Assembly (NCBI GenBank): GCA_040767195.1
Contig: JAXGPA010000001.1
Span: 160,001 to 224,000 of the forward strand
DNA from: Syntrophales bacterium
GTDB taxonomy: Bacteria; Desulfobacterota; Syntrophia; Syntrophales; UBA6807
Reading direction: 5' to 3'
DNA: 64,000 nt
The translations under genes and the position numbers were made by a program. Positions within the stretch are counted from its first letter, which is position 1, and each line of letters opens with the position of its first letter. The notes beneath the pieces are model-generated. The model ran no database searches. It was not told the origin of the DNA and was given only the letters and a program-made list of their open reading frames with translations. Shown here in pieces: positions 55,867 through 64,000 of the stretch.

Positions 55867-57903
55867 ATGGAGGCCAGGCGGTTTTTTCCCTTCCTTTTTA
55901 CAGCCGTTTTTCTCTTCCTTCTGCTTTGCCCTTCAGGCCGCGCATCAAGCGCCGTGAAGGTCCACAGGGATGTGTGGATGAAAAACGAATTCGGTGAAAG
56001 GATCACGCCGAAGGACAATTTCGAGGATCCATACAGTCCCAGAAACACGTGCGGGAGCTGCCACCCATACTCGACCATCACCTCGGGGTTCCACTTCCAG
56101 CAGGGGTTCGACGAAATGAGCGACACCTATGATCCCCGGAAACCCTGGATTCTATCCCCGGGAATGTACGGAAAGTGGTGACCGCCGGCCAATCGGTCCG
56201 GCCGTGCAGCCGCCAAAAAAAACAGCGACCCGAAACAGATCGACCTCACCGCCTATGACTGGATCGGCGGGTTCGGAAAATTGAACCCCGCCAAAAAGAT
56301 CAAGAGCCCGGCCTGCGGGTGGTGCCACCCCGGCGGCGGTTCCATGGAATACGGACGCAGGCCTGACGGGACGCCGGACTTCTCCATGAACCTGATCCAG
56401 GCGGAGAGACGGAACACGAACAGCCTGGACGGGGATTTCATGTCCCTCATTTCACCGGACGGCAAAAGCCATTTCAAGGAAAGCGGGGTCGTGGAGGGGG
56501 ACTGCCTCATCTGTCACACCGGAAGATACCAGTTCGGCAAGCGTAACCAGCAGATCAATCACATGAACTACCGGTGGGCCGCCACGGCCGGCGCCGACAT
56601 CGCAAAGATCGAGGGGTCCATCTTCAAATTCGACAATCCCGATGCCCCCCCGGGTGCCAAGGGTTTCATGGACGGCACCTGGAATTTCTCGGAAAGACCG
56701 AAAGTGACCTACCGATGGGACGACCGGAATCTTTTCAGCCGGGAAGGGCAGCTGAAAGGCACACTGATCTCAAAAACCGTGGAGGTTAAAAACTGCCTCC
56801 AGTGCCACCAGGGACCGGACGCCAAGAAGGTGGGGTGGGTTCACAAACCGGAATTCGACGCCCATTACAAGGCGGGATTCCGATGCACCGACTGCCACGG
56901 TCTGGTGGGAAACACCCGCTACGGCCGCATGGAACACCAGATCGCCAAGGGCTGGCATCCCCTGGGCAGTGTCCGGGACGACCTGGACGGCGTGGACATG
57001 ATGACGTGCCAGGCCTGCCACATCGCGGGCCGGTATCGGCCCAGCCGGCCCGGCCTGCCGGAAAAAGCAAAAGACCCGACGAAAAAGCACGCGGAGAAAT
57101 TCCCCGACGTGGCTTTTCACTTCAACCGGATCAGCTGTGCCAACTGTCACTCCACGGGGCAGCCCGGAATGTCCGGATACCTTCTCGACATGGGACCGGG
57201 GGGTCAGATCTGGTACACCGCGGCCACGCTGGAAACCATAACCTGGTCCGATGATTTCGGGAAACTCGCCCCGAAACCCTGGAAACCCTGGAGCACCCTC
57301 TTCGACGCCCGGAACGGCCTTGGAGAGCAGTACATCCCCCAGGTTCCCAAGGTGTCCCAGTGGTTCGGTGAGAAGATGGACAACCTGGAAGTTCGGCCGA
57401 TCTCTCTCAGGTACGTCAAGAAAGCTTTCGGGACCCTGAATTCCCGAACCGTCGTGGACGTCCGGAACACCGACGGCCAGGCGGTTAAAAAACCCACCGT
57501 GGCCAGGGAAGAGGAAATCCGGGCCATGATCGAGGCCCTGACAGGAATGGGGTTCACCAACGTGGTGTTTGTCTCCGACAGGGTTTACGAGCTGAGAGAC
57601 GGGCAGGTAACCGCCTATGAAGACCCGCTGACGGCCCACCCCCACACCTTCCCTGTCCATCACAACATCGTCCCTCTGGACCGCGGGACGACTTACGGGC
57701 AGAAAGGGAAACCGGAGGGCTGCCGGGACTGCCACTGGAAAGACTCGGAATTCTTCACCAAGATGCTCATTCGAAATCCCGGCCGGTTCCTACTGGAGGA
57801 CTACCCGGTACCCCGGGAGCCGAACGCGGAACCCCAGATGATCCCCTGGGGCTTTGACGAGGTCCCTGTTCCCCCGGAACTGAAGGCGAAAAAGGAACCC
57901 TGA
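55867..57903 (+). CDS. Exported octaheme c-type cytochrome with an in-frame UGA at codon 105 (probable selenoprotein, 678 aa)
   Basis: ORFs 55867-56181 and 56281-57903 share a frame, and the 33 codons between them are open. The only signal peptide is in the first part. CxxCH motifs: CGSCH, then CGWCH, CLICH, CLQCH, CTDCH, CQACH, CANCH, CRDCH. Confidence 0.78.
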
Positions 57904-57905
57904 AG

Positions 57906-58673
57906 ATGAAGCGGACCCTGGCCCTGATCGTTCTTGCCTTCCTCGTGGCGGCCATCCCGGAGAAAAGTTTTTCCCAGGAAGAGGCAACGGTCCCGGAGGT
58001 CACCCCGGCGGAGGTCTACCGGAAAATGGCGGAGGGGACACCCCCCCTGCTCATCAATACCATGAGTCTCATTGAATGCCGGGACCACCGGATTCCGGGA
58101 TCCCAGTGCGTCCCCGGGCCGGATGTGGCCGAGCGATGGAAAGGCCCCGAAGACAAGAGCAGTGAAATCATTTTTTACTGTGAAAGCCCGTGGTGCCTCA
58201 GAAGCCACCGGGCCGCCGAAACAGCGCTGAAACGGGGATTCCAGAAGGTGTCCGTCATGACCGGCGGCCTTCCCGCCTGGAAGGAAGCAGGGTACGACGT
58301 CTTTTCAGAGAAACGGATTCCCCGGGTCGGGATCGTTTCCATCAAACCGGCCTTTCTCTCCCAGTGGCTCTCGGGAGGAAACGGCCCCCTCCTTCTTGAC
58401 ATCCGAACCCCCGGTGAGTTCGAGGCGGACCACATGGCGGATTCGGTCAACGTTCCCTTTGAGATTCTCCACCAGGTGTGGCGGGACCTTCCCATGGACC
58501 GCTCCATCGTCGTTATCGACGACCGGGGACATCGCTCCTTTCTCGCCGCCTGTTACCTCTTTGAGAGAGGTTTCGTAGACATCCGTCGTCTTTTCGGAGG
58601 CATGTCGAACTGGAAGGCCTATCAATCCAAAGGAAACCAAAATCATGGCATCGAGAAGACAGCTGAGAATTGA
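57906..58673 (+). CDS. Exported tandem-domain rhodanese (sulfurtransferase)
   Basis: Signal peptide. Domain 1 has HRIPGS, FYCESPWCLRS and GGLPAW. Domain 2 has LDIRTPGEF and GGMSNW, with Asp at the catalytic position (IDDRGHRS). Confidence 0.88.
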   Translation: MKRTLALIVLAFLVAAIPEKSFSQEEATVPEVTPAEVYRKMAEGTPPLLINTMSLIECRDHRIPGSQCVPGPDVAERWKGPEDKSSEIIFYCESPWCLRSHRAAETALKRGFQKVSVMTGGLPAWKEAGYDVFSEKRIPRVGIVSIKPAFLSQWLSGGNGPLLLDIRTPGEFEADHMADSVNVPFEILHQVWRDLPMDRSIVVIDDRGHRSFLAACYLFERGFVDIRRLFGGMSNWKAYQSKGNQNHGIEKTAEN

Positions 58674-60543
58674 AACAGGCCTGGTCATCCCGCTCTTCCT
58701 TTCGGTCCTTTTCTTTCTGGGAAACCTTCCGCCCGCTCACGGGTCGGCGGATCCGGGCCAACCGGTCCTTAACGAGGGCCCCGTAAACTGTCTCGATTGC
58801 CATGATCACTTCCTTTACAGGACGGCCTTTCCCAAATCGGTCCACGGGCCTCTCGGTTGCCTGAGCTGCCACGGCGCGATCGAAGACCGGGAAAAGCACA
58901 TGACGGGCCTGAAAAAGCCGGAACTTCTCTCGTGCGCCCGCTGTCACGAGGAAATCGCCGCCTCCTATGTTAAAAACTACCACTACCTCTACCAGGACTT
59001 TCGATGCACCGACTGCCACCGGGACATCCACGCCGTCAAGCCCCCCGAGGGTTCTCAAAAGCAGGCCGTCCTGAAGCAATGCACCGAGTGCCACGGCAAT
59101 GACGAATACGCCGTTTCCGGCCACGGCCTGGCCGTCCTCGAGGGAAACGAGGACGCCGCCACCTGCTCGGACTGTCACGGCCTCCACAACACCCGGGTCT
59201 ATCACACCGCCCAGGACCTGTACCCCGCCGAGGCCCGGGAGTTCTACAGCCGGACCTGCATTCACTGTCACGGCGACCGGGACATGATGAAGAGAAACAA
59301 TCTTTCCCCGGACGTTGTCCGTTTCTATGAACTGACCTATCACGGCAAGGTCCAGGGCGTGGGCGATCCCAGCCGCGTGGCGGGATGCGCCGACTGTCAC
59401 ACGTCCCACAACATCCTGCCCAAGGACAACCCGGCTTCCACCATCCACCCGGACAACCTGGCGGCCAACTGCGGCAAATGCCACACGGGGTTCCATCCCC
59501 GTTTCGTGGAATACAAGGCTCACCCGGACTTCACGAACCGCCGGGAATACCCGTCCCTTTTCTGGACCAACATCTTCATGGAAGCCCTCCTCGTCGTGAC
59601 ATTCCTTTTCTTCTGGATTCACACGGCCCTCTGGTGGCGAAAGACTTACTGGGACAAGCACGATCTTGAAAGAAGAGGCGTCATTCCCGGCCCGCCTGTC
59701 GCCGGGTCCGAGGGCATTCAGTCCATAAGGCGTTTTTCCCGCCTGGAAGTCTCCCTTCATGTCATTCTCGTGCTTTCTTTCTTCACCCTCGTCCTCACGG
59801 GATTTCCCCTGAAATACTACGACGCCGGCTGGGCGAAACCCATCGTCCACTTCTGGGGTGGCGCCCACAAGGCCGGACTGTGGCACCGCGCCGCCGCCAT
59901 CGTCCTCATCGTTCTTTTCCTCTATGTCCTGGTCCGCTCTCTCCGATACCTCTTCCCGAAAGGCGGGGGAACCCGAGGCTGGAAAGATCGCCTCTTCGGC
60001 CCCGACTCCCTTTTCCCGAACTGGAAGGACTGGGAGGATCTCAAGGCCATGCTCCGCTGGTTCTTCAACCGGGGTGACCGGCCCCGATTCGACCGCTGGT
60101 CCTACTGGGAAAAATTCGATTTTCTCGCCGTCTTCTGGGGAATGACCATCATCGGGGGATCGGGTATTTTCCTCATGGTCCCCGAGTGGACATCCTACCT
60201 CTTCCCCGGGTGGGTCCTCAACATCGCGGCCCTCCTCCACTCCGAGGAAGCCCTGCTGGCGGCCCTCTTTATTTTCACGGTCCACTTTTTCAACACACAC
60301 CTCATCCCGACCAAATTTCCCATGGACAGGACCATTTTTACAGGCCGATACTACCTGAAGGAAATGGCGGAGGAACGTCCTCTTGAATACGAGCGGATGA
60401 AGAAAGAGGACAGGATTGAGTCGCTGAAGCAGAGGCACCCTTCGATCTGGGCGAAGCTCCTGGCCGCCTCGTTCGGTTACACGGGACTCCTTCTGGGGCT
60501 TTTCCTCGCCGCCATGATCCTGTGGACCATCGTCAGGACATGA
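58645..60543 (+). CDS. Nonaheme cytochrome c fused to a di-heme cytochrome b membrane domain (CbcL-like quinol oxidoreductase)
   Basis: Nine CxxCH motifs (CLDCH, CLSCH, CARCH, CTDCH, CTECH, CSDCH, CIHCH, CADCH, CGKCH), then TM helices with His ligands (SLHV, WHR, LHSEEA, VHFFN) and YWEKFDFLAVFWG. Confidence 0.88.
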   Translation: MASRRQLRIETGLVIPLFLSVLFFLGNLPPAHGSADPGQPVLNEGPVNCLDCHDHFLYRTAFPKSVHGPLGCLSCHGAIEDREKHMTGLKKPELLSCARCHEEIAASYVKNYHYLYQDFRCTDCHRDIHAVKPPEGSQKQAVLKQCTECHGNDEYAVSGHGLAVLEGNEDAATCSDCHGLHNTRVYHTAQDLYPAEAREFYSRTCIHCHGDRDMMKRNNLSPDVVRFYELTYHGKVQGVGDPSRVAGCADCHTSHNILPKDNPASTIHPDNLAANCGKCHTGFHPRFVEYKAHPDFTNRREYPSLFWTNIFMEALLVVTFLFFWIHTALWWRKTYWDKHDLERRGVIPGPPVAGSEGIQSIRRFSRLEVSLHVILVLSFFTLVLTGFPLKYYDAGWAKPIVHFWGGAHKAGLWHRAAAIVLIVLFLYVLVRSLRYLFPKGGGTRGWKDRLFGPDSLFPNWKDWEDLKAMLRWFFNRGDRPRFDRWSYWEKFDFLAVFWGMTIIGGSGIFLMVPEWTSYLFPGWVLNIAALLHSEEALLAALFIFTVHFFNTHLIPTKFPMDRTIFTGRYYLKEMAEERPLEYERMKKEDRIESLKQRHPSIWAKLLAASFGYTGLLLGLFLAAMILWTIVRT

Positions 60544-60613
60544 AAATCGCTTTGTGTACCGGGGGCACCCATGGTATCATGCGTGCACTGATGAAAAGGC
60601 CGGATTCTGACTC

Positions 60614-61783
60614 TTGAGCGATCATTCCCCGGAAACCGCGGCAGGCGGCATTAAGAAACGGACCCTTCCGGACAGGCTGTTGTCTTCACCAAGGCTTACC
60701 GTCGGCCTTCTCCTCGTCCTGTCAGTGGCATCGATCGTGGGAACCGTTTTCCCCCAGGGGGAACAGGCCCGTCACTTCCTCTCCCGTCTCGGCCCCGCCG
60801 CCCTTTCCTTCGTCGGCTTTCTTCAGCTTGACGACTTGTTCCATGCCACCTGGTACATGTTCCTCGGAGGGCTTCTCGCCCTCAATCTCCTGTTCTGCCT
60901 TTACCGCAGGTGGCCGTCCCTGAAAAAAACCCTTCCCCCGAGGGCTGTCTTCACGAGAGGGCTTTACCGTTTCGTCGTCCACGGGGGCGTCCTGATCATC
61001 CTCGCGGGAGCCGCCTTGAGCCATCTTTTCGGCATCGAGGCCTACATGGAAATCCCCGTGGGTGAAACGGTCGAACAGGCTTTTCTGCGGAAAGACGACC
61101 GCCCCCTGGATTTGGGCTTCCAGGTTCGCTGCGACGCCTTCCATTTTGAACGCTATGAATCGGGCATGCCGAAGGAGTACCGGTCGGAGCTCACTTTTTT
61201 CAAGGATTCGTCACCGGAGCGGAATGCCCCTGTCCGGGTGAACCAGCCGGTTTCGTTCAAGGGCATCACCTTCTACCAGTCGGACTTCCGAAAAATTCTC
61301 AAAGCGCGCCTGGCTGTACGAAACGAAGGCGAGACATGGGAGGTGGAAAGACTCGAAGGCCAGGCTTTCGATCTGACGGGAAAGGGGATGAACCTTTCCG
61401 TCCTCGTCGTTTCCATCATGGAAAACGTCATGACCATGGGGCCCGCCGTTAAACTTCTGGTCCGGTCACCGGAGGGATGCCGGGATCTGTACGTCTTCAG
61501 GGACATCGACCGGTTTCTCGAGAAGATTCCCGATCTTTACGAGCGATACCCCCCTTTCGATCCGGGAAACATCGCACCCTGGCGATTTGAACTGGCCGGG
61601 CTGGAGGAAACCTACGTGACGGGCCTCATGGTGAACAGGGATCCCGGGGCGCCCGTTGCCGCCGGGGGCGCCGCCGTGCTCATGGCCGGGATGCTTCTCA
61701 CCTATTTCAACCGCAAGAGGGAAGATAACGACAGGCGCGGCCCCGCGAAGAAGAACAGGCCAACCCGGGGAGGCGGCCCGTGA
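60614..61783 (+). CDS. resB: Cytochrome c biogenesis system II protein ResB/Ccs1
   Basis: SIVGTVFPQG, NLLFC, HGGVLIIL.G, EYRSEL, VNQPVSFKGITFYQSDF and RDPG motifs. Confidence 0.88.
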   Translation: MSDHSPETAAGGIKKRTLPDRLLSSPRLTVGLLLVLSVASIVGTVFPQGEQARHFLSRLGPAALSFVGFLQLDDLFHATWYMFLGGLLALNLLFCLYRRWPSLKKTLPPRAVFTRGLYRFVVHGGVLIILAGAALSHLFGIEAYMEIPVGETVEQAFLRKDDRPLDLGFQVRCDAFHFERYESGMPKEYRSELTFFKDSSPERNAPVRVNQPVSFKGITFYQSDFRKILKARLAVRNEGETWEVERLEGQAFDLTGKGMNLSVLVVSIMENVMTMGPAVKLLVRSPEGCRDLYVFRDIDRFLEKIPDLYERYPPFDPGNIAPWRFELAGLEETYVTGLMVNRDPGAPVAAGGAAVLMAGMLLTYFNRKREDNDRRGPAKKNRPTRGGGP

Positions 61784-62601
61784 ACACAACCCTTCTTGCC
61801 GGCACCCCCTTCGTTTACCTCGGCGCTTTCCTCATCGACCTGACGGGAAGGGTTACCGGTAAAACCGCCTTGTCACGAACGGCGAAAACAGTGGCAGCGG
61901 CAGGCTTCTGCCTCCACACGGCGGGATTGGCCCTGAGATGGGTGGAATCGTATCACCTCGGCTTCGGTCATGCCCCTCTTTCCAATTTTTATGAATCCCT
62001 CATTTTTTTCTCCTGGGCGATCCTCCTGGCCTACCTTATTCTCGAGTTCTGGAAAAAACCGGGGATTCTCAGTCCCTTCGCCCTCCCCGCCGCTTTTCTT
62101 CTCATCGCCTACGCATCTTACTCGCCGGACGTGGACAGCCGGATTCGACCCCTCATCCCGGCCCTGCAGAGCAACTGGCTCGTCACCCATGTCATCACCT
62201 GCTTTCTCGGATACGGCGCCTTCGTCATCTCCTCCATTTTCGGCCTCCTCTGTCTCATCAAGGGAAACGATCCCCTTTCGACCCGGGACGACATTCCGGA
62301 AAGGGATTCGCTCAGCCTTTATCTCTACCGAAGCGTCGCCGTGGGCTACGTGTTCTTCACCCTGGGCATCATAACGGGGTCCGTCTGGGCCCATTCGGCC
62401 TGGGGGTCCTGGTGGAGCTGGGACCCCAAGGAAACGTGGGCGCTCATCACCTGGATGATATACACGGCCCTGCTCCATCACCGCCTCGGGGGAAAGGACC
62501 GGGCGAAAGGCATGGCTATCCTGTCCCTGGTGGGTCTCGCCAGTGTTTTTTTCACCTATCTCGGGGTGAATTATCTTCCCGGCCTTCACAGCTACCTGTG
62601 A
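61780..62601 (+). CDS. ccsA: Cytochrome c biogenesis system II heme lyase CcsA/ResC
   Basis: HAPLSNFYES, PALQSNWL..H, WAHSAWGSWWSWDPKETW and GLHSY; GTGA overlap with resB. Confidence 0.93.
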   Translation: MNTTLLAGTPFVYLGAFLIDLTGRVTGKTALSRTAKTVAAAGFCLHTAGLALRWVESYHLGFGHAPLSNFYESLIFFSWAILLAYLILEFWKKPGILSPFALPAAFLLIAYASYSPDVDSRIRPLIPALQSNWLVTHVITCFLGYGAFVISSIFGLLCLIKGNDPLSTRDDIPERDSLSLYLYRSVAVGYVFFTLGIITGSVWAHSAWGSWWSWDPKETWALITWMIYTALLHHRLGGKDRAKGMAILSLVGLASVFFTYLGVNYLPGLHSYL

Positions 62602-62656
62602 CGGGTCATTGTCCCCTTTTTCCGTATCGGCACCGATGGTGCCTCGGGAACACCTG

Positions 62657-62965
62657 ATGACGACCGGCGGCTCATACGATGAACTGGAAATGCGATGCCG
62701 GGAGATTTCCGGCCTGCTTCGCCACGGCGACGCCTACAGCCCTTCCTTCCTGGCCTGGAGAAAGGACGTGGAACGCCTCCTTCAGGCCCTCTTCGGCACC
62801 GATTCGGAGCCCTTGGAGCGATTTCGCTCCATCTACTATACCCCCCTTTTTCTTTCCTGCCGAATCGACCTGGATGTGTTCCCGGAGGCTTTCCGGGACG
62901 GCCTGGGGGAGGCCCGGCGACTTCTCCAAGAACTCCTTGACAGGAGACCGTCCCATTGGACATAA
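62657..62965 (+). CDS. Small hypothetical helical protein
   Basis: 102-aa ORF with genome-like codon usage; start uncertain. Confidence 0.55.
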   Translation: MTTGGSYDELEMRCREISGLLRHGDAYSPSFLAWRKDVERLLQALFGTDSEPLERFRSIYYTPLFLSCRIDLDVFPEAFRDGLGEARRLLQELLDRRPSHWT

Positions 62966-62973
62966 GAAAAGCA

Positions 62974-63138
62974 TGACGGCTTCGTAAAAGTCCATAGGCT
63001 GTGTTGCCCTTCATCCCCCGTCATTGCGACGTACCAATAGGTACGTCTCATTCCTCGGGACTCGGGCGCCTTGCCTCTGGATCTTTATACAAAGCCGTCG
63101 GTAACGGAACATTTTTCGAGTTTTTACGAGTTCATCAA
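62974..63138. mobile_element. MITE-like non-autonomous repeat
   Basis: Left end TGACGGCTTCGTAAAAGTC. Right end reverse complement TGATGAACTCGTAAAAACTC. An internal inverted copy TTTATACAAAGCCGTC and a GACGTACC/GGTACGTC hairpin are present; no transposase. Confidence 0.65.
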
Positions 63139-63169
63139 GCATGACGTCCATGAAAAAGGGGGAAACAGG

Positions 63170-64000
63170 ATGACCGTATTCCGAAAAGGGTCTGTCCGCG
63201 TGGAGAGTTATCTGCGCCAGTCGGTCCTGAATGACGTGGTGGAGCTGGAAAAGCGGGTCTGGAACCGGGAGGGATACCGGGAAGTGAACGCCCCGATGCT
63301 TTATTTCGAACTGGCCTACCTGACCAACGGTCTCATTCTGACCGCTTTTGACGAAGGACTTTTCCCGCCCGAGGAAAAAGAGAAAATGGCCAAGGAGGAT
63401 TCCTGGTACGAAGGGGAGCATCCTATTGGCTTTGCGGCTCTTTTCGCCGATTTCGACGAGCGCGGCCCTTTCTGGTACGGCGCCCGGATGGGTGTCGACA
63501 GGCTTTACCGGGACAAGAACATCGGCGAGGCCATTCTCGACGCCCTTTATCGAAGCGCCAGAGAACGGGGAATCATGCGGGTGCGCTGGACTTATGACCC
63601 CCTGCAGTCAAGAAACGGGTATATCTACATCCACAAGATGGGCGCCCAGGTCCATGAAATCGGTTTCAATTACTACAGCGCCGTCTTCACCAACGACGAG
63701 TTCAACAGGGACATATCGACGGACCGCTTCATCGTGGAGTGGTTCATCAACACCGAGCGGGTCCGGAATCGCATGGAAAAAGGGGATTTTCCCGTCCATG
63801 ACCCTTCCACCATCACCCCCGAAAACACGGTCAACGAAATCGTCATCGACGAGGAAGGGTTGGAACAGGGGGGTGAAAAGCAGCGGTTTGACGCCGAGGA
63901 AACGACGCTTTATCTTGAAATTCCCTACAACCAGGACCGGATCCTGAAAACGGACAGAAAAAAGGCCCAGGCCCTGAGAAATCAGTGCCGGGCCCTCTTC
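63170..64000 (+). CDS. GNAT-family acetyltransferase, COG3375-like (partial, runs off the window)
   Basis: Hand translation from ATG 63170: ...VELEKRVW...RMGVDRLYRDKNIG...RVRWTYDPLQSRNGYIYIHKMG...STDRFIVEW. Absent from the ORF track because it has no stop in the window. Confidence 0.8.
   Translation, partial: MTVFRKGSVRVESYLRQSVLNDVVELEKRVWNREGYREVNAPMLYFELAYLTNGLILTAFDEGLFPPEEKEKMAKEDSWYEGEHPIGFAALFADFDERGPFWYGARMGVDRLYRDKNIGEAILDALYRSARERGIMRVRWTYDPLQSRNGYIYIHKMGAQVHEIGFNYYSAVFTNDEFNRDISTDRFIVEWFINTERVRNRMEKGDFPVHDPSTITPENTVNEIVIDEEGLEQGGEKQRFDAEETTLYLEIPYNQDRILKTDRKKAQALRNQCRALF

Follow-up and report, generated by a model that had tools for sequence, protein, structure and literature searches.

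We analyzed a cluster of five genes in a 64,000-nucleotide (nt) stretch of DNA from a Syntrophales bacterium, hereafter called the window. The cluster occupies positions 55867 to 62601 and encodes, in order, an octaheme c-type cytochrome, a tandem rhodanese-like protein, a protein that joins nine c hemes to a cytochrome b domain, and the cytochrome c biogenesis proteins ResB and CcsA. The reading that we favor, with a probability of roughly 0.5, is that these genes form a self-contained module that faces the periplasm and is fed by the quinone pool, and that its octaheme cytochrome, which resembles the octaheme tetrathionate reductase (OTR) of Shewanella, cleaves S-S bonds with the help of the rhodanese. 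This reading starts from computed observations: the content and order of the genes and their conservation, the kinship of the octaheme protein with OTR, a conserved in-frame TGA codon, and the presence of the cluster in RNA libraries. The features of the cluster are as follows.

55867-57903, + strand: octaheme c-type cytochrome, periplasmic and OTR-like, putative terminal reductase; 678 amino acids (aa) with the TGA read as selenocysteine (Sec) at residue 105 (U105)
56179-56181, + strand: in-frame TGA, read as U105 in the motif G-K-W-U-P-P; codon kept in related loci
56198-56213, + strand: candidate hairpin resembling a selenocysteine insertion sequence (SECIS); 5-bp G+C stem and 6-nt loop (CGUGCA), starting 17 nt past the UGA
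57906-58673, + strand: tandem rhodanese-like protein, secreted; 255 aa, 2 nt after the octaheme stop
58645-60543, + strand: CbcL-type protein with nonaheme c and cytochrome b parts; 632 aa, overlapping the rhodanese gene by 29 nt
60614-61783, + strand: ResB, CcsB-type protein of System II cytochrome c biogenesis (PF05140)
61780-62601, + strand: CcsA, heme-handling subunit of System II (TIGR03144); 4-nt overlap with ResB

An earlier note on this DNA had described five co-directional genes, the first three tightly coupled and carrying 17 CxxCH motifs, with no porin, molybdoenzyme, or NrfD gene. Each of these points was reproduced. All five genes lie on the + strand, the 2-nt gap and the 29-nt overlap were recovered, and the octaheme and nonaheme proteins contribute 8 and 9 motifs, respectively. 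No porin, molybdoenzyme, or NrfD was found among the genes called around the cluster (49.4 to 64 kb), which are unrelated housekeeping genes (TyrRS, YmdB, ZapA, a DUF4412 protein, a CBM48 protein, and a GNAT protein). The only two open reading frames (ORFs) with more than two CxxCH motifs in the whole host genome (98.8% complete, 13 contigs) are those in the cluster. The G+C content of the cluster, 58 to 61%, equals the genome mean of 59.8%; there is therefore no compositional anomaly, and a signal of horizontal transfer in composition was ruled out. Judged by taxonomy, the host is a strictly anaerobic digester bacterium related to syntrophic fatty-acid degraders. Its MenA scores above the cut-off for that protein, which makes the use of menaquinone plausible.

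The earlier note had proposed conservation of the neighborhood of the three core genes as a check on the module, and such conservation was observed. In the related loci, which were the best 80 of 254 relatives on contigs from one genome per species, the rhodanese gene directly follows the octaheme gene at all 71 loci for which 900 nt or more of downstream sequence is available. A CbcL-like gene follows the rhodanese gene at all 70 loci with at least 1,500 nt downstream. Because the order is kept throughout, the arrangement exceeds what chance would produce. The 254 relatives of the octaheme protein come from as many species-level genomes. Within the Syntrophales, the protein is encoded in 89 of the 301 genomes sampled, corresponding to 58 of 201 high-quality genomes and 28 of 72 genera. 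The distribution is patchy, with a single occurrence among the nine other genomes of the window's own family.

Contigs from metatranscriptomes, which may hold DNA as well as RNA, cover the cluster and bridge its gene junctions in two studies (anaerobic digester and sludge). Contig X17 (55781-57000) runs across the start codon and the TGA, contig X3 (56173-58096) matches with 3 differences, and contig X18 spans positions 57887 to 61662. The depth of such contigs cannot rank genes, and the low-depth bins at 55562-55842 and 62025-62305 were not used as evidence.

The octaheme cytochrome and its partner proteins

The octaheme gene is preceded by a ribosome-binding site (AAAGGAG before the ATG at 55867) and encodes an N-terminal hydrophobic signal segment followed by eight CxxCH motifs that begin at C62, C150, C213, C310, C340, C381, C424, and C619. 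Pfam and NCBIfam returned generic multiheme matches only, with no specific model recognizing the protein, and sequence searches of the PDB with the protein and with an 88-sequence profile gave no meaningful match. We therefore turned to structure and built an AlphaFold2 model from the 88-sequence alignment (predicted local distance difference test [pLDDT] score, 84.8; predicted template modeling [pTM] score, 0.86). The sole significant match of the model in Foldseek was 1SP3, Shewanella OTR (E = 2.3e-5). An independent comparison with VIA-align gave a Z score of 11.0 against 1sp3_A, with a root mean square deviation of 4.6 Å and 342 of 436 residues aligned; the runner-up had a Z score of 3.9.

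Profile comparisons pointed the same way. We collected genuine members of the OTR family, TIGR04315, from genomes of the phylum and aligned 14 of them. In hhalign, the octaheme family matched these members with a probability of 93.8% (E = 1.7e-7), hemes 4 to 7 being paired one to one. When the N-terminal parts were compared, hemes 1 to 3 were aligned and the invariant lysine of the OTR GK motif fell on K138, at a probability of 57.5% (E = 1e-4). Scored directly against TIGR04315, the octaheme protein reached 5.4 bits (E = 7.7) with a cut-off of 375, and it is therefore outside that family in the database sense; no TIGR04315 match was found in the host genome or in 13 genomes of the same order. 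As judged from the model and the profiles, the octaheme protein is a remote relative of the OTR superfamily that lies below the threshold for database membership, and the idea that it represents an orphan type was not borne out.

Further features of the family were read from the 88-sequence alignment. Seven histidines outside the CxxCH motifs are invariant, and seven distal histidines for eight hemes would fit one catalytic heme. K138 is at least 90% conserved, and the family is without any invariant Cys outside the motifs. The protein is about 240 residues longer than OTR. The additions include an inserted alpha/beta domain at residues ~440 to 590 and an insertion at residues ~79 to 128 that bears U105, and the loop from K138 to C150 is 7 residues shorter than in OTR and has no Cys.

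Two variants of the octaheme were seen among the relatives. In long forms of ~860 to 900 aa (P0009, P0011, P0014, P0016, L039, L072, L074, and L086), the alpha/beta insert, with its motif WFGE...RPI, is present in triplicate. One clade (L020, L053, L070, L072, L074, L039, L043, L049-L051, L055, L064, L066, L068, L071, and L091) has a degenerate heme-2 motif, and the loop at position 105 and the heme-2 motif change together: CGWTH is paired with G-K-G-C/U, and APGWTH or SAGNLH, which lack Cys, with G-K-G-G. Given this degeneration, heme 2 may be singly attached or lost in that clade.

The rhodanese protein has a hydrophobic segment at its N terminus only and matches Pfam Rhodanese (PF00581; E = 2.3e-26) in two stretches that correspond to two domains. 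In domain 1, Cys92 occupies the canonical catalytic position in the loop C92-ESPW-C97-LRS, which is longer than in classical rhodaneses. Domain 2 has an Asp at the catalytic position, here and in all 66 partners aligned, and is inactive. Across these partners, C92 is kept in 38, C97 in 34, C58 in 62, and C68 in 63. The earlier note's periplasmic rhodanese thus stands for the window, where both the fold and Cys92 are present, but the canonical Cys is a feature of only part of the family. Cys92 is kept in the partner at all 12 aligned Sec- or Cys-type loci, the window included, although these loci are related and the statistic is not independent. A complex prediction with the natural Cys-type octaheme-rhodanese pair of L020 scored 0.00, a result that speaks neither for nor against their association.

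In most relatives, the core comprises five genes and extends upstream of the octaheme gene (e.g., L020:5840-7816 for the extra genes). Of the 66 loci whose upstream sequence reaches 2.3 kb or more, 45 have a second tandem rhodanese gene directly upstream; its catalytic Cys, in the loop CDTGKVC, is present in 51 of 51 sequences. An extra cytochrome gene is found upstream at 42 of the 66 loci and usually encodes 10 CxxCH motifs (27 of 46 sequences). Both upstream genes are missing at L090 and at all five loci examined from the window's own Sec clade (L015, L016, L017, L019, and L023). Farther upstream, 24 loci have a FAD_binding_2 flavoprotein with a twin-arginine translocation signal and 21 have a c3-type cytochrome (L034:3041-4684 and L037:4396-5481). 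Together, the two proteins look like a periplasmic flavocytochrome reductase divided into two polypeptides, possibly another outlet of the same quinol branch.

The third protein has CxxCH motifs at residues 49, 72, 97, 121, 146, 174, 205, 248, and 276, followed by six hydrophobic segments after residue 300. Its membrane part matches PF01292 cytochrome b561 just below the cut-off (E = 6e-7; 29.8 bits versus 30.1) and the FdnI-like model TIGR01583 (E = 3.7e-8), and six histidines of that part (H326, H372, H414, H532, H547, and H552) are invariant in 28 sequences. The best 120 homologs listed were all close orthologs from metagenomes. The architecture and heme spacing agree within a few residues with those of a 616-aa CbcL homolog from Syntrophus sp. 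(Table S2 in the partial text of PMC6295460). These features bear out the CbcL-like assignment, and on sequence the protein is a putative menaquinol dehydrogenase of CbcL architecture.

ResB (PF05140; E = 4.3e-58; 197.7 bits) and CcsA (TIGR03144 [CcsB], 238.9 bits versus a cut-off of 187.6; PF01578, E = 5.7e-49) were both confirmed. The ResB match is the sole one in the genome, and the pair is its only System II; the two proteins therefore need not be dedicated to the module, a qualification of the earlier view that counted them as part of it. At the 51 loci with at least 6 kb of downstream sequence, they are encoded downstream on the same strand in 29 and upstream and divergently in 5, and they are missing in 17. 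CcsA1 is a dedicated heme lyase for the unusual motif of MccA. A dedicated heme lyase for an unusual motif was set aside as an explanation here, since the pair is the sole System II of the genome and is missing at 17 of the 51 loci.

The in-frame TGA codon at residue 105

The TGA codon is kept in 8 of the 80 related loci (L015 to L019, L023, L039, and L090). The surrounding motif is G-K-W-U-P-P at L015 to L019 and L023 and G-K-G-U at L039. The protein sequence is conserved on both sides of the TGA in the Sec-type loci, of which L090 is a distant form with 39% identity. A Cys occupies position 105 at five loci (L020, L053, L070, L072, and L074). The octaheme gene is single copy in the host genome, and the match runs across the TGA.

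The candidate SECIS-like hairpin has the loop CGUGYN at 7 of the 8 Sec loci and CGGGCU at L023. When the hairpins were aligned, 90% of cells were paired and one pair covaried (CG in three sequences and UA in three). Non-Sec forms served as a control: 4 to 5 of the 5 pairs are kept in 8 of 8 Sec forms versus 11 of 37 non-Sec forms. The same bases, however, double as codons for conserved residues. An Rfam scan of positions 54000 to 64000 at E ≤ 1 detected no SECIS or other RNA family, and the 81 nt after the TGA, folded as a single sequence, were no more stable than shuffled versions (z = -0.40).

SelB (359.9 bits) and SelA (604.4 bits) of the host genome exceed their respective cut-offs, and each of two full-length FdhA genes carries a single TGA; SelD and tRNA-Sec, by contrast, were not found in the assembly. 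On balance, the conserved codon, the hairpin control, and the presence of SelA, SelB, and the FdhA genes indicate that the TGA at 56179-56181 very probably encodes Sec. The earlier note's seleno-octaheme is upheld to that extent for the window, although Sec is a minority trait in the family at large. In the octaheme tree, the Sec clade forms one group of six rows (Shimodaira-Hasegawa-like approximate likelihood ratio test [SH-aLRT] support, 96) that is basal together with L090 under midpoint rooting. The root is not established, and the topology hints that Sec may be ancestral in the family.

Proposed sulfane-sulfur reduction and its alternatives

From these observations, we propose a route in which the way the electrons flow, what Lys138 does, how near Sec105 lies to heme 2, the carriage of sulfur by the rhodanese, and the substrate are all inferred. 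The CbcL-type protein would oxidize menaquinol and relay the electrons, via its two b and nine c hemes, to the soluble octaheme protein. Catalysis would take place at heme 2, as in OTR, with Lys138 as the candidate heme-2 lysine. In the window's lineage, Sec105, carried on a flexible loop particular to the octaheme family, would assist the active site. The rhodanese-like protein would most likely bind sulfane sulfur through Cys92/Cys97, in persulfide or polysulfide form, for presentation to the octaheme protein. The reaction would then most likely be reductive cleavage of an S-S bond, with Sec acting as the nucleophile and polysulfide, persulfide, tetrathionate, or thiosulfate as the substrate. 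The 17 hemes would be attached by ResB and CcsA.

The main argument for sulfur chemistry is the repeated pairing of cytochromes with rhodaneses. S-S bond reduction would be the likeliest chemistry because there are precedents for it in Geobacter MccSep and in the octaheme-rhodanese clusters of Dethiobacter, both compared below, and the substrate would most likely be sulfane sulfur, polysulfide, or tetrathionate.

Several points weigh against this proposal. The polysulfide/sulfide couple has a more negative potential than menaquinone, so reduction would need help from the membrane potential. The OTR fold by itself leaves the substrate unfixed, because OTR also reduces nitrite and hydroxylamine. 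Most relatives of the octaheme protein carry Leu, Gln, or Ser at position 105, and the core chemistry of the family therefore cannot depend on Sec or Cys there. U105 itself is 45 residues before heme 2, off the position at which OTR has its Cys or Sec, and it sits in the ~79-128 insertion, where the model has low confidence (pLDDT, ~45 to 56); its closeness to heme 2 is for that reason an inferred one. The equation of K138 with the heme-2 lysine of OTR depends on the 57.5%-probability alignment. The catalytic Cys is missing from 28 of the 66 rhodanese partners, and domain 2 is inactive in all. The RNA-library contigs are no proof of one transcript. Lastly, neither SelD (best match, 38 bits; cut-off, 125) nor tRNA-Sec (best match, 42.1 bits versus 47; none with Aragorn) was found in the assembly, in which 39 tRNA genes were detected on the 13 contigs. 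Since TGA-containing FdhA genes are present, we assume that both were lost to assembly gaps.

The kinship with OTR could instead mean that the module reduces nitrite or hydroxylamine, in respiration or detoxification, which lies within the reach of both OTR and NrfA-type multihemes, and that the rhodanese is an accessory or structural protein. OTR is the only structural relative of the octaheme protein and reduces both compounds (partial texts of PMC3769277 and PMC7509429; PMC13510729). Seven distal histidines for eight hemes are compatible with an open catalytic heme, and the frequent lack of Sec or Cys at position 105 and of the catalytic Cys in the rhodanese would also be in keeping with such a role. 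We nevertheless consider it unlikely. Rhodaneses have no known role with nitrite, and here one adjoins the octaheme gene at 71 of 71 loci, joined at 45 of 66 by a second one with a fully conserved Cys; moreover, where Sec or Cys is the nucleophile, the chemistry is typically that of chalcogens, as MccSep illustrates.

Alternatively, the octaheme protein might be a mere periplasmic carrier, and the electrons might be exported to an extracellular acceptor or partner by extracellular electron transfer or direct interspecies electron transfer (DIET). Geobacter uses CbcL in extracellular electron transfer (partial texts of PMC6148476 and PMC6295460), and multiheme cytochromes of Smithellaceae and Syntrophus have been treated as possible DIET components (partial texts of PMC13685792 and bioRxiv 10.1101/479683). 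This explanation is unlikely given the gene content: neither a porin nor an outer-membrane cytochrome is encoded in the cluster, and more than two CxxCH motifs occur in no ORF of the genome outside it. The octaheme protein has the fold of an enzyme family and one heme without a conserved distal histidine, and neither a Sec codon nor a rhodanese partner would be expected of a wire.

The electrons might also run the other way, with sulfide, thiosulfate, or persulfide being oxidized and the quinone pool reduced. The direction of CbcL/MtoC-type proteins varies by organism, and their sequence features are not diagnostic of it (partial text of PMC6295460); in addition, the mechanism of MccSep has been likened to the reverse of thiosulfate oxidation by TsdA/SoxAX (PMC13510729). 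We regard oxidation as improbable in a host that is, by taxonomy, a strict anaerobe from digesters and for which sinks for electrons would matter more than sources. Within the window, no high-potential terminal oxidase was seen; the genome was not searched for one.

Equally improbable is a physiological substrate such as selenite, tellurite, or another metalloid oxyanion in place of sulfur. Rhodanese-like proteins also handle selenium. MccSep reduces selenite in addition to polysulfide, but polysulfide is its preferred substrate (PMC13510729), and although the ext cluster of Geobacter has been tied to selenite and tellurite reduction (partial text of PMC6148476), such substrates would be scarce in digesters.

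That the TGA is a true stop, and the octaheme gene broken or split in a decaying module, is very improbable: the undetected SelD and tRNA-Sec and a local fold no more stable than shuffled sequences would suit this view, but the TGA occupies the identical codon with conserved flanks in 8 other loci, one of them at 39% identity, the upstream 104-aa piece bears the signal peptide and heme 1 that the downstream piece needs, and SelA and SelB are encoded in the genome alongside at least two FdhA genes that contain a TGA.

Syntrophic degraders of fatty and aromatic acids are thought to depend on partners for the removal of electrons. If sulfane-sulfur reduction by the module is correct, these organisms would have an overlooked electron outlet that is independent of a partner, and methanogenic carbon turnover in digesters and sediments would be tied to cryptic sulfur cycling. 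An OTR-like enzyme would be placed among rhodaneses, which bears on the debated physiological substrate of the OTR superfamily, and the recently recognized class of sulfur reductases that combine heme and Sec would be widened. We also put forward, tentatively and as a somewhat doubtful extension, that many "obligate" Syntrophales syntrophs carry a molybdenum-free, quinol-driven reductase of sulfane sulfur (polysulfide, persulfide, or tetrathionate) composed of an OTR-like octaheme protein, an obligate rhodanese, and a CbcL-type anchor. In a form that may be ancestral, catalysis would rely on a Sec brought to the heme-2 site on a loop other than that of genuine OTR selenoproteins, as a second independent union of Sec and heme for the cleavage of S-S bonds after MccSep, and the electrons of beta-oxidation could be dumped without a methanogen. 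Because all multiheme proteins of the genome and its sole heme-attachment system lie within the cluster, it is a clean, portable unit for expression and assay.

Outside the module, a dispersed 140-nt repeat lies at 62998-63137, directly downstream of CcsA. The genome has 16 full-length copies, with 89 to 100% identity, plus fragments, and the repeat holds the hairpin GACGTACC-AATA-GGTACGTC. In each of the four RNA libraries, summed contig depth peaked in its bin by a wide margin, and the contig ends were loose on both sides. No Rfam match was found for it in the scan of 54000-64000 at E ≤ 1, and a rescan of 62850-63250 gave chance-level matches only. The repeat is probably an element common to several organisms, similar to a miniature inverted-repeat transposable element (MITE) or a repetitive extragenic palindromic (REP) sequence.

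Comparison with known systems

In polysulfide respiration by Wolinella succinogenes, the molybdoenzyme Psr works with the periplasmic sulfur carrier Sud. The cluster would resemble this system in concept, in that a periplasmic rhodanese-type protein passes sulfane sulfur to a quinol-linked reductase. Unlike Psr, the cluster has no molybdopterin subunit and no NrfD-type anchor, and its reductase would be a multiheme cytochrome.

A closer parallel is MccSep/ExtKL of Geobacter sulfurreducens (GSU2937-2936), a multiheme polysulfide reductase with Sec. MccSep has five hemes, an Ig-like domain, Sec near the C terminus, and a strictly conserved His/Cys-ligated heme (PMC13510729), and the rhodanese-like lipoprotein ExtH is encoded beside it in the ext cluster (partial text of PMC6148476). 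In both systems, a rhodanese-like gene is clustered with that of a periplasmic multiheme selenoprotein and no molybdenum enzyme takes part, and in both Sec is followed by Pro on a mobile loop (G-U-P-T-P-N-R in MccSep and W-U-P-P-A-N-R in the octaheme protein). In contrast to MccSep, the octaheme protein has eight hemes and Sec near its N terminus, and the cluster has no porin. Membership of the octaheme protein in the MccSep family was rejected, as there was no match to NF040886 at E values up to 10; the resemblance may lie in the working mode and is not one of family.

The residues that follow Sec (56185-56199) read P-P-A-N-R in the octaheme protein and P-T-P-N-R in MccSep, at unrelated positions of the two folds. 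The shared string U-P-x-x-N-R, of which U-P and the Arg alone are constant in the Sec clade, is too short to carry weight and may reflect chance or convergence.

Members of the CbcL/MtrH/MtoC family of quinol oxidases-quinone reductases join an N-terminal multiheme c domain to a C-terminal b-type membrane domain with about six transmembrane segments and conserved histidines (PMC6295460). The membrane protein agrees with them, carrying nine CxxCH motifs ahead of six membrane segments in which histidines are conserved. Geobacter CbcL serves extracellular electron transfer and is required for acceptors below -0.1 V (partial text of PMC6148476), whereas the protein of the cluster is tied to an OTR-like enzyme and a rhodanese. 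In the available portion of a comparative paper on Smithellaceae, cytochromes of this kind appear only as generic DIET markers (PMC13685792).

Dethiobacter alkaliphilus also has clusters of genes for octaheme (SirA/Otr-like) and rhodanese-domain proteins, in an organism without Dsr and molybdenum sulfur reductases, and its octaheme is upregulated on thiosulfate. It belongs to a different phylum, and the available part of that study reports neither Sec nor a CbcL fusion (PMC10376724). With MccSep and the Dethiobacter clusters as precedents (PMC13510729; partial text of PMC10376724), the molybdenum-free pathway proposed in the earlier note is not without forerunners. The note's description of the module as a candidate undescribed one held in that no published account of the cluster was found in our literature searches, but the design can be traced to a known one, as follows.

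Shewanella OTR (S. oneidensis SO4144; 1SP3; TIGR04315) binds heme 2 through C74xxC77H78, with Lys56 as ligand (partial text of PMC3769277). The pairing of OTR with a cytochrome b561 has been described in an Ignavibacteria genome (partial text of PMC7509429). Next to genuine OTR genes, we found PF01292 cytochrome b561 in 8 of the 11 downstream ORFs tested. The OTR family is listed as a GenBank-annotated selenoprotein in the table of a 2026 review (partial text of PMC13188914), and 28 of the 67 matches above the TIGR04315 cut-off carry one TGA. In the Sec forms examined (6 of 6), this TGA precedes the heme-2 motif by 10 residues, at a position held by an invariant Cys in the remaining forms. Sec-type genuine OTR genes (L097, L105, L106, and L107) lie between an ArsR-family regulator, upstream, and a cytochrome b561 gene, downstream.

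The octaheme protein shares with OTR eight CxxCH motifs in the same order, a matching fold, and coupling to a PF01292 cytochrome b, which in the cluster is the C-terminal half of the CbcL-like gene. Many OTR-family members are selenoproteins, as the octaheme protein very probably is, and K138 may correspond to the heme-2 lysine, with which it aligns at 57.5% probability. Unlike OTR, the octaheme protein lacks the Cys or Sec 10 residues before heme 2 and has its Sec 45 residues before, and in the cluster nine c hemes are joined to the cytochrome b, with a rhodanese gene always interposed. Because the usual gene partner of OTR is a cytochrome b561, the cluster is a variant of the OTR and cytochrome b561 module, with a CbcL-type anchor, a rhodanese partner, and Sec on another loop.

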